A program made the translations under genes and the position numbers. A stretch of 64,000 nucleotides of DNA from Heptranchias perlo (taxonomy: Eukaryota): assembly GCF_035084215.1 (NCBI RefSeq), contig NC_090358.1:15686001-15750000 (forward strand), in the 5' to 3' direction. The first letter of the stretch is position 1. The number at the start of each line of letters is the position of its first letter. The notes beneath the pieces were generated by a model. It saw nothing but the letters and a program-made list of their open reading frames with translations, ran no database searches and was not told the origin of the DNA. This document shows positions 7,293-63,825 of this stretch, piece by piece.

Positions 7293-8165
7293 GTTACTGC
7301 TTTAATTTGGTCAGTTCTCAAAGGATAATAACTTCAAATTAATACAATTCACCATTAGTTGCTGGGGACAAGAGTCAAAATATTTTATGACACTTGGTGC
7401 TGTTCAGTCATGCATCGACACCAGAGCAATTTGTACAAACATGCAACATAGTCATAATGTTTAAAATGATTCTTCCAAAGATGGCACCATGATTGCATCA
7501 AATTGTAATCTGCCTAGCTGAGATCACACTAAGTCATTTTAAAGTTGTTTATACTCCCTTGGAATAGATTTTAAGATTGTAATAAAACTTACCTCTGTCA
7601 TGATCTGTGAATTAGCATACAATAATTGGACTTGTTAAGTATTGCTAGAGTTTACAATGCAGTGACTGTTCCCTTATGCATTGGAAGACATGAACTGCAT
7701 AGCTGTGCAATGTAATTCAGAGAGGCCTAAAATTTTGTACTAGGGGTTAGTTGGATATGTGGCTGAACAGTACAAGTAAAAATCTGTGACAAAAACTAGA
7801 GTTTTATTTTGTCCTGTTGGTTGTGTCCAGACAGAATTATTTCATCTTTTCTGGGAAAGACCTATGCGTTATCTGTGGTTCCAATTTGCTGCTTTCCAAT
7901 ATCACTGCTTTACATAGGGCAGTAATTGATTAAAACATAAAAATGTGCACAGACCGGAAGTGGAGATACTGCCATCTTTGGAAGAATAATTTTAAACATT
8001 ATGACTATGCAGCATATTTGTACAAATTGCTTTGGTGTCGATGCATGACTGAACAGCGCCAAGTGTTATAAAATATTTTTGACTCTTGTCCCCAGCAACT
8101 GATGGTGAATTGTATTCATTTGAAGTTGTTATCCTTTGAGAACTGACCCAAATTAAAGCAGTAAC
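7293..8165. repeat. ~195-bp inverted repeat (7293-7486 and 7970-8165), about 94% identical
   Basis: Manual alignment: 10 substitutions and 2 single-base indels; spacer about 483 bp. Confidence 0.93.
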
Positions 8166-11814: not shown

Positions 11815-11995
11815 GATGTGGAGATGCCGGTGATGGACTGGGGTTGACAATTGTAAACAATTTTACAACACCAAGTTATAGTCCAGCAATTTTATTTTAA
11901 ATTCACAAGCTTTCGGAGGCTACCTCCTTCCTCAGGTGAACGATGTGGAAATAAAATTGCTGGACTATAACTTGGTGTTGTAAAATTGTTTACAA
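11815..11995. mobile_element. Penelope-like palindromic remnant (family P1) with 15-bp TSD
   Basis: Perfect 50-bp inverted arms 11848-11897 and 11949-11998; TSD TTGGATTTAAACTGT at 11800-11814 and 11996-12010; contains a hammerhead core. Confidence 0.8.
11902..11940 (-). ncRNA. Minimal type I hammerhead ribozyme (Penelope-type)
   Basis: UUCAC-CUGAGGA-A-GGAGG-UAG-CCUCC-GAAAGCU-U-GUGAA: 5-bp stem I, CUGANGA core, 5-bp stem II, GAAA, palindromic AGCU stem III. Confidence 0.75.
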
Positions 11996-13865: not shown

Positions 13866-15877
13866 CATTAGAATGGTAGGCCATTGTTAGAAAGTTAATT
13901 AAGAGCAAGTCTTTGATGTTGTTAGAATACATCGCCATTTAAAATACCCTAATCCGGTAATATTGCATGAGTAGTGTTGTTCTCATTCATGTGCAATTAA
14001 AGTTGCAGACTTCTGTGTCTATCTGATGCCGCTGTCATGGTTAGGATTACTACAATATATAGTACTTTACTGCTGAATGCATAAACAGAGATTCACTGAG
14101 GATAGGGTCTGTTATATTGGCCCCAGGCACACAGCACTATTCCTGATGGAATATTAACTGCATAGCTCATGCCAGACAGAAAATGGTAAGTTGAGGATCG
14201 CTGTGTGAGTAGTGATGGTTTGAGAACTGCCCACCTGGATAAGTGCATGGGCACGATACTGCACAGCTGTCTTGTGAAGGTGTTGCTATTTACTGGCCCA
14301 TTGAAGAACAGGACTGTATTGGAAGATATTCTGTCTATTCCGCTACAGTATGGCTGGCAGGTCCTGTGCGGCTGGCACAACCAAAGATAAACTTACAAAG
14401 GCCGTTAAAGTCCACCAACAATAGAAACCCCATTATACTGGGTCTTCCCAACTACCGCTGGTTTGTGGAGTTGAATGGACTGGCTACTTGTCTGTCTGTA
14501 GTCTGATGTCATGATGGGGTACTGGGTCATGACATCAAGCACAGACTCAGGACAGGCTCAGCGTGTGCAATGTCTTGCGGTTATTTGACCTGCTCCTGCT
14601 GTGGACTTTAACTGATTTGGCTCAACACTTGGGTGTTCTTTAGGCTCTTGTACTATATGGACTACTGTAATCTGTGCAGTGGGAAATCAAACAGTGCACC
14701 CAAGAGTCAGTCATTGCTGATGCAGTACTTCCAGCATGCACAGTGGTCAAAGTGTCGAAGCATGTGAGGATTCTTGGGAATTAACGGCTCCATTCTTGCA
14801 TGGAAATACACAAGAGCATCTCATTTAAGTAGTCTTCTCATGCCCCAGGATATGGAAGCTCTTAATGTAAAACTGCCTTTTAGTGCTGCATTTACATTCC
14901 AATCAATGTGAATGCAGCACTAAAACTAGAATGTAACAGGTGTGAGTGAAATGGGCGAAAGGATCACTCGCACTCTTTTTTTAAAAAAAAGAACATGGTA
15001 GTAGATTAAACTGTCATCAAATAGAAATGATGATCTGTATTTTGCAATAGAATTAAGGGCAGCTGACCTGTCTTCCCCAGAGCCTCCTCTCTTAATCAAC
15101 CTGCCTTCTCAGTTCCTGATGCTGTTAATTAGATATAATGTCCAGAGGGTGACATTTTTTAAATAAGTTTTAAATTTAAAAAGTTACAAAATATGCCTCT
15201 GAAAATGCTCCGAGGGTTAAGGCTAGTTATTTTTAAGGGTTGCAGATTCATTGAGGAATATTGAATACTACAATTGCAGAGACATTTGCTGTACTGAGAG
15301 TTCCTATATATTACTCAGCTGCTGATGTTTGCTGCTTTATGGGTATAAATAGTTATGCAACAATTTTTTTAAAACATGTTTGCAAATGTGCTTATGTTCT
15401 TGCATAAGTTATATTTCATTTAGGTGCAAGTAAAATATATTGCATATCAATGCAGCAACTTCAGTAAAGGTGTGAGTCAGTCCAATTTTAGTAAGAACTA
15501 AGCAGCAACTAAAAAGAAATGACAGTGGCAATGCTTGGAAAATGACAGCTTTTTCAAGTAAATGAAGTCTCCATTCAGCAGTTGGCATCAATGCTAGGCT
15601 TGCATTCCAGTTATGAGCATCAGAAATCTTTACACCATATCATCATTGAACTCACATTGGGGAGTCATTGGATATATTTAATCCATGAGGAGATCCAATT
15701 GAATAATGCACAAGTTTTGCAGCTCTAATTGCATTGACATTTGATTGGTTCATTCTATGTCCAGTGGGCCCACAATCTATTCTGTTTATTCTATAGGTAT
15801 GTGCAAGTTTTTGAAGTGATATCGATGTTAAAATATAAACAGGCTTCCCTGCAGAGTTCTTTGAATCATGAAGAGAT

Positions 15878-15994
15878 TGGAGTAGATCTTGACTTTGTGC
15901 GTTTGTGTAAAATGGGTGATAGCAAGTCACCGAACTGGCTGCCGACTCGCTATTACCCGTTTTACACTATCGCACAAGGTCAAGATCTATCCCA
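15878..15994. mobile_element. MITE-like palindromic element (about 117 bp)
   Basis: TAGATCTTGACTTTGTGCG...GCAAGTC pairs with GACTCGC...CGCACAAGGTCAAGATCTA, arms about 46 bp. Confidence 0.65.
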
Positions 15995-25819: not shown

Positions 25820-26891
25820 GTAAGTACTAATACAAAGTTTGCATCTGACTGTGTCTGCCTGTCGGATATGAACCATGTTGATGGACTCAAATTTTTCTAT
25901 TAAGTAGAAAATCAGTATTCACAAATACACACAGCAGACTCCACTATCACCCATAAACACATGTTCTTTAAAAGTAAAATTGTTAGCTAAACATCAAAAA
26001 CTAATTTCTGGGGAAAAAAAAACACGAAACTTACTGATCCCATCTTCCAAACCCTCCAACAACTTTCTCCTGTATGGATCTCACATCTCTAGGGCCTTGG
26101 ACTTGCCTTCTGCTTGCTTCTTAGAGCTGAAATCCTTGGGTCCAGATATATTTTCCCAGCCTTTCTGGAGTCCAAGGGGTTTGCAACTGTGATCGTTGGG
26201 AAGCTGCCATTTTTAAACCTGGCAAAGCGCTCAAACATCTGATCTGACCATGCTCAATTTCTTTAGTGCTCCTTTGTGCCACCTGCAAGTACGCTGGCGT
26301 CTAGCTTCAGCTCATGATTCAGTCTCATCCCTGGCCTGTCCCTTCCTGTTGCTTGCGAGTACGGCACACCATTCCTGACTGCTTGCTAAATTATTCAGAA
26401 TCACTGAGCTTGAGCAGTAACCAAATAATTTCAAAATATCAAGAATTGGGTGTAGAAAACAGACTGAATGATGACTTAACTTAAATTTTCTTGCTTGACT
26501 TCTGAACTCAAATTTTCCCTGCAGTGCTCCCTCCCCCTCCCCTTCCCCCTCCCCCACCATTTGAGGGAAGGAGATACTTATGGAAGGTATGAGAAAGACG
26601 TGATGAAACAGATACAGTTAAATGAGAGAAGTGCTTGAGATCCTTGCAGAGAGAGGAGAGTAGAAGCAAGGATAGGCACGTGCACGCACGTAAAGGATTG
26701 GGTTTGGCAGCCAAGCAGAGAGATAGTTACAGAAAAATGCATTTTTCTTTATATCCATGAGCAATGCCAGGGAAGAACAACAAATTATTTAATAATTTAT
26801 CAGCATTATATTTATGTAGAGTATATTCCTCAAAATTTATCCTTTCTCCTCCAATGTGTTATCTAACACGATAAATAACACTGCCTTTCAG

Positions 26892-27075
26892 ATCAACACC
26901 ACAAATGACGAAAAAGATAGGAGCAACCCATTTAGGTTTGCAAACATTGGTGTGGAGAAATTCCTCGAACTCAATTCAGAGCAGAATCATGACGATTATT
27001 GCTTAGCCTATGTGTTCACAGATCGTGATTTTGACGATGGTGTCCTGGGACTGGCTTGGGTTGGTGCACCAGCAG
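26892..27075 (+). CDS. ADAM10: ADAM10 exon 8, metalloprotease domain
   Basis: 184 nt, AG/GT; [61 protein letters not shown]. Confidence 0.97.
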
Positions 27076-27712
27076 GTAAATGTCTGCAGACCTTGTTTCC
27101 AACAACTTGGGTTCCTTGAATTAAATGGCAAAGTCAGTAGTTACTACAACCAAGCTCCTGCTTTGACCATTGAAATGATCGAAGTATACAGCTTGGAAAT
27201 TGATGCTTTTAAAATGATGTGACCATTGATGGTGATTGTGTTTGTTAAAAAAGGAACATAAAATTTCTATTGATATTTACATTTTTCATAATATAAATGA
27301 GGAATGATATTGGTCTCTCTCCAGTTTACTCGAAGGTGACTCCCTTCTATTTCCATGTTCCTTTAATTATTAAGAGGAACTTTGGTAGCAGTTCTACCAT
27401 TAGAAAAAAGATCTGAGCTAAAATTCTAGCCTCGGTGAGGAAAATAATAAATAGAACTTAACTGTTCTGTCTCAACTATTTGTAAAGATTTAATGATGTG
27501 TTGGACTTGTGCCTCTAACATTGCCACTCATTGTGGAAACCATGGGCAGGAAGAGTTCCTTAATATGCCATGTGTAATGAAATTGTAAAGCCATTCTTTG
27601 TAATTTTATTACACATTGTGTACAAAGGAAATTGTCTCCCCATGTGAATAAATGGAGATCAATGCATATTTGGGATTGAATTGAAAAGCTGTAATCAAAC
27701 ATCCTAAACCAC

Positions 27713-28002
27713 TGTAAGGAGTCTTACAAAACCAGGTTATAGTCCAACAGCTTTATTTGAAATCACAAGCTTTCGGAGCTTTCCTCCTTCGTCAGTGCTC
27801 CCTCCCCCTCCCCTTCTCCCCTTCCCCCCCTCCCCCACCGTTTGAGGGAAGGAGATACTTATGGAAAGTATGAGAAAGACGTGGTGACGAAGGAGGAAAG
27901 CTCTGAAAGCTTGTGATTTCAAATAAAGCTGTTGGACTATAACCTGGTGTTGTAAGACTCCTTACATTTGTCCACTCCAGTCCATCACCAGCATCTCCAC
28001 AT
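27713..28002. mobile_element. Penelope-like palindrome (family P1) with 13-bp TSD and captured local DNA in the loop
   Basis: 82-bp inverted arms 27713-27794 and 27885-27966 (80/82 identical); TSD CATCCTAAACCAC at 27700-27712 and 28003-28015. Confidence 0.82.
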
Positions 28003-29525
28003 CATCCTAAACCACAGCAGTAAACCTGGAGACAGTTTTTTTTTAAAACTCTGGTTAAAATATGAAACTGTGTTGTAATCTTTAAGTTCATGCTACTTGT
28101 TTTAATTTCTGAACGCTTTATTCATCTTGAACTCTTTCCATGCTCTTAATGTGTTTGAACAGGCTTATTTTTTTAAAACTGAGGAGTAGTATTTCTTTCT
28201 CTATTTTCACACCATTTTGCAATCAGGCAGCAATGCTAAAATGTAAGGTTCCTTGCATCTGCTACATCTTTCCCTGACAGGGTAGGCAAGATGCTCCTCA
28301 ATTGGTCTGAGATGCTCTTTGGTCGCTGAAGTGGTGTAAAATTAACCCCAGGCTATTCTCTCCCTCCTTTACCTCGACAGCTTTGGTCATGTGGGGAATC
28401 ATGAATCTGCATCATACTACTCGATAATAAGTATAATAATGCTGACAGCAGCACTAAGTTGTTTGGATGATAAAAATTCAAATGACAATTTGTTACAGAC
28501 AGCCACTATTTTTGCACTGCTGTCTCTGAATATGCTGAACTACCACAATATACCAGTGCCCACATACACCCAGAAAAAGTATGTGGCAAAATAGTCATAT
28601 ATTTAGTTTCATGAAATCAAATGACAATGGATATGCAGGAACACAGTAGGCCTAAGTGAGAGATGGGGAACTGGGCTGAATTGAAGCCTCAACTTTCCTA
28701 AACTGCCTGTCCTCAATTGTAAACATAATGTACTTACCCAGGTCTTGTTACTTCTTTTAATATCCAGTAACTTCAAAAGACTGCTAGTTTTTTTTAAAAC
28801 TTGGCCGTGTTGTCCCTTTCATTCCATGAAACCATTCAATTTGTTCCATAGTAGAAATGCTGCTAAATCCTGCCAGAAAACTGTAGGTGCTGCAGCAGAA
28901 GTGGCTCGAATCCCTTGACACAGCAAAAGGGGACGAGCAGCTTTATACTTTTTATTAATGCACCAAAAAAGAAACTGTTTAGACAGTAGCCAGTGCACAT
29001 TAGTAAAGAATTGGAAATTTGGGCTTTAATGGAATGGATAACAATGAAATAAAGAAGGAGGACTAAGCAAGTGAAATACTGGCCTTGAAAATGTAGCAGA
29101 GAAAATCAAAGCTACTGAGACAACATAGAAGAGATTTAGAGGCACTTTGTTTAAAAAACAAACTGAAAGGAAAGCCAATTACAGTGCCACTCTAGAAAGT
29201 AGAAAACCTTGTGCTGAGATTTTATAGAACTTGCTATAGTGAAGTAAGAAAAAAAATTAAAGGAAACTGGATATTTATGGCCTCATATTAAAAAAAAAGG
29301 GCCAATGTACTTATACATCCAGAAAAAGGTATGCAGCAAAAATATATATCAGCCCACAGTAAAATATATGCTTCCAGCGGTGCACTACTCCAAATGGGTA
29401 CCTCCATGTGATACGTTTATTGTTTAATAAAGCCAGTAATAATGTGGGTTTAGTACCATTTGTATTATGGAAGAAACTGATTTCAAAATGAGATGGGCAA
29501 TATTGCCATTTTAAAAGAAAAACTA

Positions 29526-33371: not shown

Positions 33372-33489
33372 ACTTTGAGAGTTTGAGTACACAAACCATA
33401 TGCAAATTATTTATTGCACAGCATATGGTTTGTGTACTCAAACTCTCAAAGTTTACCCTGCAGGTAACAATGGCCTGTTACCTGCAGGG
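33372..33489. repeat. Two adjacent perfect hairpins (32-bp and 14-bp stems)
   Basis: 33372-33403 pairs with 33421-33452; 33456-33469 pairs with 33476-33489. Confidence 0.93.
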
Positions 33490-37353: not shown

Positions 37354-37883
37354 TGAAAAGCAAAAACCGTGGATGTTGGAAAGCTGAAATAAAAACAGAA
37401 AATGCTGGAAAAGCTCAGCAAGTGATGTAGCATCTATGGAGAAAGAAATAGAGCTGAACCATTACCAGCATTTGCTGCCCAAAAAAATGGGAGCTGTGGT
37501 TATGATCTGATGTTATTTCAGTAACTTCAGATCATTATCACTGCTCCCATTTTTTTCAGACAGCAAGTGCTGGTAATGGTTCTGCTGTTGCCATTTACAG
37601 CTAATCTAGACCGATCTTTTGTCTCTTGTCCCATTACCACCCTCCTTACCTTGCACAATCATCCCTTTTGTCATTTGATCACTCTTGCCCTCTATCCTAT
37701 AATAGACTTTCCCTTTTGTTCTTTCCTTCCCTCCTCTCGATCTCTTCTCCCCACGCGCCCCCCCCCCCACCCCGCCACTTTCCCTGGCTCTGTACTTACT
37801 TAAAAACTTTAACTCTTTAACATCTTCCAGTTCTGACGAAAGGTTTTCGATCTGAAACATTAACTCTATTTCTTTCCCCACAG
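37354..37883. mobile_element. Penelope-like palindromic element (family P2) with central fold-back and decayed hammerhead (+, 37829-37865)
   Basis: Inverted terminal repeat 37354-37455; fold-back 37456-37582; AGUU-CUGACGA-A-AGGU-UUUCG-AUCU-GAAACAU-U-AACU. Confidence 0.72.
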
Positions 37884-38860: not shown

Positions 38861-39081
38861 ATAACCCATCAACATGTGCAAGTACTGGGTCAGAGAAGTG
38901 GCACAATCACTTCAATCATACCACCATCACACTACAGCCTGGCTCACCCTGCAATGATTTCAAAGGCTACTGTGATGTCTTTACTAGATGTAGACTTGTT
39001 GATGCAGATGGTCCATTGGCCAGGCTAAAGAAAGCAATCTTTAATCCAGAGCTTTATGAAAATATTGCTGAATGGATTGTG
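38861..39081 (+). CDS. ADAM10: ADAM10 exon 14, cysteine-rich/stalk region
   Basis: 221 nt, AG/GT; [73 protein letters not shown]. Confidence 0.97.
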
Positions 39082-63377: not shown

Positions 63378-63825
63378 AAAAGAAAAAAGAAAGACTTATA
63401 TTTATATAGCGCCTTTCATGGCCTCAGGATGTCCCAAAGTGCTTTACAACCAACAAAGCACTTTTTGAAGTTTAATCACTGTTGTAATGTAGGAAATGCA
63501 GCAGGCAATTTGCATACAGCAGGACCCCACAAAGAGCAATGAAATAAACAGCCAGATCATCTGTTTTAGGAGTTGGTTCAGGGACAGATATTGGATAGAA
63601 CTACTATCCAACTCTTCTACGACTAGTTCCGTGGGATCTTTTGCCTCCACCTGAGAGAGCAGTACTAAGGGAATGCTGCCCTGTTGAAGGTGCTGTCTTT
63701 CAGTTTAATGGCTCACCTGAAAGACTGCACCTTCAACAGTGCAGCATTCCCTTAGTACTGCACTGAAATGTTAGCCTAGATTATGTGCTTAAATTTGTGG
63801 AGTGGGACTCAAACCCACAACCTTG
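63378..63825 (-). mobile_element. DeuSINE with an internal inverted duplication
   Basis: Tail AAAGGCGCTATATAAATATAAGTCTTTC on -; central domain; 45-bp inverted arms 63659-63703 and 63717-63761. Confidence 0.75.

Follow-up and report, generated by a model that had tools for sequence, protein, structure and literature searches.

In the parts of the published sources available for comparison, Penelope-like elements with an endonuclease are described with head-to-head repeats, a tail of 30–40 bp on one side, a short TSD and a minimal hammerhead ribozyme (PMC3846280, PMC8557442, PMC11167929), the length of the tail being given in PMC8557442 and the minimal hammerhead, of the dimer type, being known from the terminal repeats of PLEs (PMC4209133). 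In Adineta vaga unrelated host DNA is found between the Penelope terminal repeats (pLTRs) and inside the TSD, as spacers of 0.9–1.5 kb or as a whole gene between direct repeats, and these captures were read as mobilised in trans (PMC3846280). At L1 sites short genomic pieces (<250 bp) are duplicated within the retroelement insertion from templates that typically lie within 15 bp (10.1101/2024.08.27.596794; PMC11702581). Class 2 TSI and SD-MMEJ events leave the donor intact, show microhomology at their junctions, carry patches without poly(A) or TSD and are inherited through the germline; the donors of class 2 TSI are distant, and the patches are argued to be RNA-derived, while the tracts of SD-MMEJ are mostly much shorter and adjacent (PMC5110952, PMC7407515). 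In palindromes that are engineered or long, a break at the centre rearranges the axis into a spacer (Cunningham et al. 2003, cited through PMC3300023). Finally, in pseudogenes derived from circRNA a downstream donor-like site is joined to an upstream acceptor-like site and fixed in DNA, these being annotated exons that land elsewhere (PMC4897178). A 2026 preprint on animal retrozymes covers one cartilaginous fish, and in its available text no passage on capture or tails was found (10.64898/2026.07.22.740005). Each of the three ingredients, a palindrome with a tail, host DNA captured between Penelope repeats and a templated patch, is already described.

The element described here occupies positions 27713–28002 of a window of 64,000 nt from Heptranchias perlo (NC_090358.1, positions 15,686,001 to 15,750,000). 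It resembles the endonuclease-bearing Penelope-like elements in its layout, but it consists of two stumps of 82 bp, has no ORF within 27713–28002 and carries foreign DNA at the junction of the stumps. As in Adineta vaga, host DNA lies between the repeats inside the TSD, though here the patch is 87 nt long and sits at the axis of an inverted pair, its donor is recognisable at a distance of 1.27 kb, and nothing points to onward movement. Like the insertions at L1 sites it holds a short duplicated genomic piece, but in another class of element and with a junction that hints at a prior hairpin. The intact donor, the microhomology on both sides, with no poly(A) or TSD flanking the patch proper, and inheritance through the germline are shared with class 2 TSI and SD-MMEJ, between which the patch is intermediate in length and distance. 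Compared with the revised palindromes, this is a natural stump of 82 bp with an insertion and no loss, and compared with the circRNA-derived pseudogenes the sites would be cryptic, the copy would have landed in its own locus and the RNA origin is putative. In the literature searched, which included few subscription papers, we came across no Penelope palindrome with a patch at its axis templated from nearby, and no case of a back-spliced RNA used to patch the locus it came from.

The arms of the element (27713–27794 and 27885–27966; coordinates refer to the plus strand unless stated otherwise) are complementary at 80 of 82 positions, with mismatches at the pairs 27730/27949 and 27775/27904, and they enclose a loop of 90 nt (27795–27884). 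Outside lies a TSD of 13 bp, the left copy (27700–27712) and right copy (28003–28015) being identical at 13/13 positions. An earlier note on this DNA, made from its letters alone, had reported 82-bp arms, a 90-nt loop and an intact 13-bp TSD, and all three were measured again as stated. The left arm, on the minus strand, is an inverted Penelope-like terminal repeat without the tail. The right arm is the same repeat in the ribozyme-sense orientation and runs on into an unpaired extension of 36 nt, the one-sided Penelope ‘tail’ (27967–28002). Inverted shortened terminal repeats, a tail on one side and a TSD make up the Penelope/Poseidon-type layout, and a sister element in the window, which also has the tail, is built alike. 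Contigs were available from four sequencing runs, all of one sample that is possibly the source of the assembly, and were placed on 26300–28200 at 85% likeness. One of them is continuous from 26300 across the donor, the intervening exon and the left TSD into the arm, and a second spans the right TSD at full depth. The insertion looks homozygous in the sampled individual because there is no empty-site joint among the joints listed; nor was an uncaptured allele seen in the contigs of this one sample.

The host gene is ADAM10. A coding exon at 26892–27075 matches human ADAM10 with E 1.6e-34 and is covered by a contig of run X5 (26892–27076), a run with no cover over the donor; by human gene numbering we take it to be exon 8. 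In translated searches three further exons precede it and seven follow, all on the plus strand. Positions 27793–27887 align in direct orientation with 26522–26606 in the preceding intron (E about 1e-29), the starts being 1271 bp apart. The earlier note had described this match in direct orientation, with the donor on the other side of the ADAM10 exon from the element, and both points are borne out. The donor is intact and comprises a C tract, G4-capable on the minus strand, followed by purine-rich sequence. The copy differs from it by three substitutions and by a C tract that is 10 bases longer. The templated insert proper (27796–27882, 87 nt) contains two of the substitutions, at 27840 and 27867; the first of them (26559/27840) was absent from the description in the earlier note, as was the greater length of the C tract. 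The C tract does not carry the match alone, as the 44 to 47 bases to its right align to the donor by themselves, and no other direct duplication among the 70 self-hits of the window reaches 35 nt and 84% identity within 6 kb.

The sequence at the borders of the loop differs from that of the family. After 27795 the family contigs continue GTGAGTG (consensus of 112 loose ends, run X1) and before 27885 they read CACTCACC (16 loose ends, run X1), so the loop appears to be foreign to the Penelope family. The donor C tract (26523–26562) was skipped as a repeat in the depth count, and the depth therefore applies to the unique half of the donor. For this half (bin 26556–26619) it is 8.22 in runs X1 and X2 and 10.2 in run X4, equal to that of a single flanking contig, and the low copy number is seen in 3/3 DNA runs, all of the one sample. 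The arm bins, by comparison, have a summed contig depth of 0.7–2.1 million per bin, about five orders of magnitude over unique DNA, which as a rough guide marks a very abundant family. Contigs at 85% likeness, which drop rare variants, showed no extra copy of the unique half in this sample. Close by, at 26680, run X4 has a G/A difference at half depth that is likely heterozygous and gives a gauge of the depth of a single allele. The purine fraction at the end of the donor is 0.77 and is followed by 0.72 and 0.67 in the flank, a level reached by 3.4% of 60-nt windows; because this composition extends into the flank, the intron is favoured as the source. Donor and copy have diverged at 2/84 positions and the two arms at 2/82, which suggests that the patch is old and is no duplicate made in assembly. 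The case that the earlier note had named against itself, that the segment is a high-copy repeat or part of the Penelope consensus, is contradicted by the single-contig depth and by the different native sequence of the family. The reading of the loop as copied from a locally unique template, and not as family consensus, is supported by the contigs and alignments.

It could still be argued that there was no local capture at all, the loop being a nearby repeat or family sequence, the intron segment being the copy and not the source, or the centre being misassembled. The low complexity of the skipped C tract, the fact that no contig among the rows listed runs across the arm-loop junction and the origin of all four runs in one sample are consistent with such a reading. 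The independent match and single-contig depth of the unique bases, the GTGAGTG of the family contigs, the lack of a second direct local duplication of this size and the purine-rich composition past the donor end all speak against it, and the private differences between copy and donor tell against an assembly duplicate. We regard it as very improbable and already largely refuted.

The sister lies in the opposite orientation at 11815–11995 (minus strand) and is 84% identical over 119 nt. It has an asymmetric centre, a TSD of 15 bp (15/15) and an intact minimal hammerhead with the core, stem I (5/5), stem II and a palindromic AGCU as helix III. Where the studied element has its loop the sister has the native sequence TCAGGTGAA, as the earlier note had stated. 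In the left arm of the studied element the hammerhead core is kept but stem I pairs at 0/5 positions, and in the right arm the core C is lost; both halves are broken, in agreement with the earlier claim that the capture took stem I or the core C from each. The Rfam hammerhead models gave no match at E ≤ 1, and over the window Rfam returned only sub-threshold microRNA hairpin hits (n = 13). The centre of the sister (11939–11950) contains GATGTGGA, the same as its own end at 11815–11822, which could be a small self-templated filler; this candidate was rejected, as an 8-nt match is equalled by 373 of about 5000 random 12-mers (about 7%) and is not significant. Forward splicing from the sister was likewise rejected as a source of the left arm, which matches the right arm at 80/82 positions and the sister at about 82%.

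A search of metagenomes with the first family pattern gave 0 stretches. The hammerhead pattern found two, L001 and L002, which have no matching palindrome and have only the ribozyme in common with the studied element. L002, a marine metagenome contig that L001 overlaps, has a GIY-YIG-like frame of 177 aa at 48–581 and about 750 bp downstream of it a related minimal hammerhead at 1331–1361 (33 nt at 85%). The frame was placed by Atlas with GIY-YIG clusters (score 0.97; PF01541 on 23–34% of members), while Pfam gave no hit at 0.1. L002 is another family and not the parent of that studied here, and through it the connection of the studied family with a GIY-YIG ORF is an indirect one; judging from this arrangement L002 may be the 3′ end of a Penelope-like element of a eukaryote.

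The junctions of the patch are not alike. The earlier note had reported microhomology at both, and on the left this holds, the CAG at 27793–27795 being common to arm and donor; microhomology of at least 3 has a chance of about 5% at a random junction. On the right the claim has to be weakened. At 27884, just before TGA, the copy has G where the donor has A and the native arm has C, so that the microhomology there, at 4/5 bases, is not clean. The native continuation of the opposite arm, on the other hand, is GG-TGA, and the GG at 27883–27884 could be the relic of the 2-nt loop of an earlier tight hairpin. A modelled precursor consisting of the left arm, two native G and the right arm explains the element in full, with an overlap of 1 base and 0 bases lost. 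Such a tight hairpin would account for the G at 27884 without mutation and also for both arms ending at one position. The family unit has 23 short inverted repeats in 95 nt, and the fit to a single one of these is therefore weak. The predicted fold energies of the present form (−104 kcal/mol) and of the modelled precursor (−94.6 kcal/mol) were considered as a test of stability and set aside as uninformative, neither value being a measure of cruciform extrusion. Dating of the capture relative to the insertion was given up for want of enough changes, the divergence intervals of 0.3–8.8% and 0.3–8.6% leaving capture at insertion and capture afterwards inseparable.

The centres of the family are variable. 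We compared 13 forward joints from 15 listed rows and 10 distinct joints from 12 listed rows, which together give 20 distinct joints. Among these listed joints 8 lie within 4 nt of symmetry, 2 of them forced by the studied element's own arm ends, and 12 are asymmetric, though some pairs may represent a single locus read on each strand. The joints listed have 1–22 nt between them; as the comparison covers at most 40 letters for each, long captures are invisible in it. One joint in the family contigs, from 27793 to 27885, belongs to a different member with a longer near-perfect hairpin and a 3-nt loop, showing that tight palindromes of >90 bp persist in the genome.

On balance it seems probable, by a modest measure, that the tip of a hairpin opened and was then patched by microhomology-primed copying of nearby DNA. 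By analogy with its relative, a Penelope/Poseidon-type enzyme would have made staggered cuts in the two strands, 13 bp apart, and started cDNA synthesis at either end, and two start sites would yield one arm with the tail and one without. The Poseidon enzyme of the anole cleaves and extends each of the two strands, and its two start sites flank the tail (PMC11167929), which would account directly for the two arms; self-priming, as proposed for such palindromes (PMC3846280), is an alternative for this step. The cDNA ends would then have joined via the short inverted repeat TCA-GG-TGA of the element into an 82-bp hairpin with a loop of 2 bases. Soon after, or late in integration, the tip would have opened, one end may have primed on the intron 1.27 kb upstream via short homology (CAG on the left, 4/5 bases on the right), and about 80 bases would have been copied before rejoining to the other end. 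What is seen today is the patch of 87 nt, the intact donor and the two broken ribozyme halves. In eukaryotic tests spacers of 42–52 bp abolish the fragility of inverted repeats (PMC3300023, PMC7999016), a 42-bp spacer having abolished the recombination that they induce (PMC3300023), and for this reason a patch of 87 nt would plausibly end the instability of the palindrome.

The suggestion of the earlier note that the tip broke and was patched is the best-fitting reading of the right junction, and we prefer it to a capture at the time of integration because a single cause then suffices for the G at 27884 and for the equal arm ends. It has difficulties of its own, however. The precursor is modelled, and a single change of A to G after the capture explains 27884 equally well; the tract of 87 nt is longer than the 1–25 nt given for polymerase theta (PMC7407515); that the donor has an acceptor-like start must be taken as a coincidence; and homology gives no reason for the choice of donor. 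Microhomology of the size found at the junctions is common, 73/191 sense CAGs within 5 kb having a partner, and extended homology was rejected as the ground for the choice since 111–247 of 383 CAG sites in the vicinity pair at least as well. The G4-capable tract, which the earlier note had offered as a link, fared no better: an equally defined motif occurs in 79/3831 windows of 85 nt within 2 kb and in 303/9831 within 5 kb, so that as a cause it was dropped as a post-hoc coincidence of 2–3%, and is kept as a lead. According to the main rival, which we consider possible but clearly less likely, the capture took place during integration, when one of the growing cDNAs switched at TGA from the element RNA to nearby DNA or unspliced ADAM10 pre-mRNA as its template and then annealed to the other cDNA via CAG, no tight hairpin ever having formed. 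The orientation is as for a switch onto sense pre-mRNA, which is expected in 1 of 2 cases anyway, the ages of arm and patch are indistinguishable and the TSD is intact; templated genomic inserts are described at L1 sites (PMC11702581), with 22 local templated insertions in about 3600 somatic L1 insertions (10.1101/2024.08.27.596794). The templates at L1 sites, however, typically lie within 15 bp of the site, against 1.2 kb here (10.1101/2024.08.27.596794). Moreover, such a capture has to invoke a further mutation at 27884, or a base added there without a template, and this base has to coincide by chance with the way in which the other arm natively continues. The two cDNAs would also have had to end no more than one base apart, while 12/20 of the family joints listed are asymmetric. 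The switch of the element's RT onto ADAM10 intron RNA that the earlier note had also proposed belongs under this rival and is less supported, as it leaves the stray G and the equal arm ends unexplained.

A third explanation, to which we give little credence, concerns the left junction. By the splice-site consensus the native continuation of the arm on the ADAM10 sense strand, CAG|GTGAG, is donor-like, and the donor starts in a putative acceptor-like context (26463–26524) with 60 nt without AG, a branch-like motif, a pyrimidine run and CAG. The patch may then be a fossil of back-spliced RNA written into its own locus. The arm would have given a new splice donor (CAG|GTGA), which the spliceosome would have joined to the cryptic acceptor at 26525 upstream of the ADAM10 exon, and the right end would have reverse-transcribed the resulting circle of 1271 nt around the exon across its junction and annealed to the left, so that the RNA templated the repair of the tip. 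The left junction falls exactly at the donor-like site of the arm and on a sense, upstream, acceptor-like CAG, as back-splicing to such a circle requires, and for this site extended DNA homology gives no account. The CAG is preceded by 8/10 pyrimidines, which 10/197 sense CAGs within about 5 kb reach, and by the zone of 60 nt free of AG, which 5/197 have. Under a model for which 10 ADAM10 acceptors were the training set, the one at 38861 being left out, it scores 1.5, within the leave-one-out range of −1.0 to 5.8 for those acceptors; this score exceeds that of only 2/10 true acceptors, though, and 43/380 CAG sites within 5 kb score as high (top 11%), 10 of these being sense and upstream. The combination, found at 1 of 197 CAGs, uses thresholds taken from the site itself and was noticed post hoc, and plain microhomology likewise yields the CAG overlap. 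An AAG|GTATGA that lies 62 nt inside shares its intron hexamer with a real ADAM10 donor (24153), but the copy runs through this donor-like site. Retrocopied back-splice junctions do occur in genomes (PMC4897178), and there are published arguments for patches of RNA origin at breaks (PMC5110952). The low rating reflects the three rare steps that are needed, and the donor site would be partly paired in the tight hairpin. The capture itself has destroyed the putative splice-donor site of the arm. Taken by itself, the stretch 26525–26586 is a possible cryptic ADAM10 exon of 62 nt, with the acceptor-like start and the AAG|GTATGA end; in the copy in the loop its last exon base is A and not G, and the pyrimidine run of the arm gives an acceptor-like context at 27795.

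Elsewhere in the window, an inverted repeat at 7293–7486/7970–8165 has arms of 196 bp at 94% and a spacer of 484 bp, with no TSD and no local source for the spacer. Six more short hairpin elements, unrelated to the Penelope family, are found at 37452–37586, 63656–63764, 33372–33452, 15883–15989, 14878–14925 and 33456–33489, two of which adjoin each other at 33372–33489; these six have neither a convincing TSD nor a convincing local donor. Of the 8 local inverted repeats compared besides the studied element, none had a convincing local donor for its centre (two weak hits, E 0.025 and 0.034) or a convincing TSD. About 55 bp to the left of the TSD of the studied element there is a degenerate inverted repeat (27541–27644, 70%), at which contig depth is 3–7 times that of the flank; it is probably an old low-copy repeat.

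The earlier note had seen in the capture a route by which palindromic retroelements might pick up and carry host DNA. This is not borne out: the contigs of this sample, at 85% likeness, show no further copy of the unique half of the donor, the ribozyme halves are broken and the centres of the family differ. The element is most likely a dead intronic repair scar, a single fossil and not a mobile unit, and on its own the studied copy is one dead scar in an intron without demonstrated function. If the back-splice reading were true and general, the Penelope palindromes of sense introns would preserve a record of breaks repaired in the germline from RNA templates; the segments captured in their loops would begin at acceptors, come from upstream, have the sense orientation of the host gene and be joined to the arm at its CAG. 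The strand, side, distance and splice context of the donors over captured loops would be a sharp separator of DNA- and RNA-templated patching. In the studied copy both junctions and the donor can be read base by base, and the centres of this abundant family, each insertion having its own, provide a large natural record of the joining of cDNA ends and the repair of hairpin tips in the vertebrate germline.
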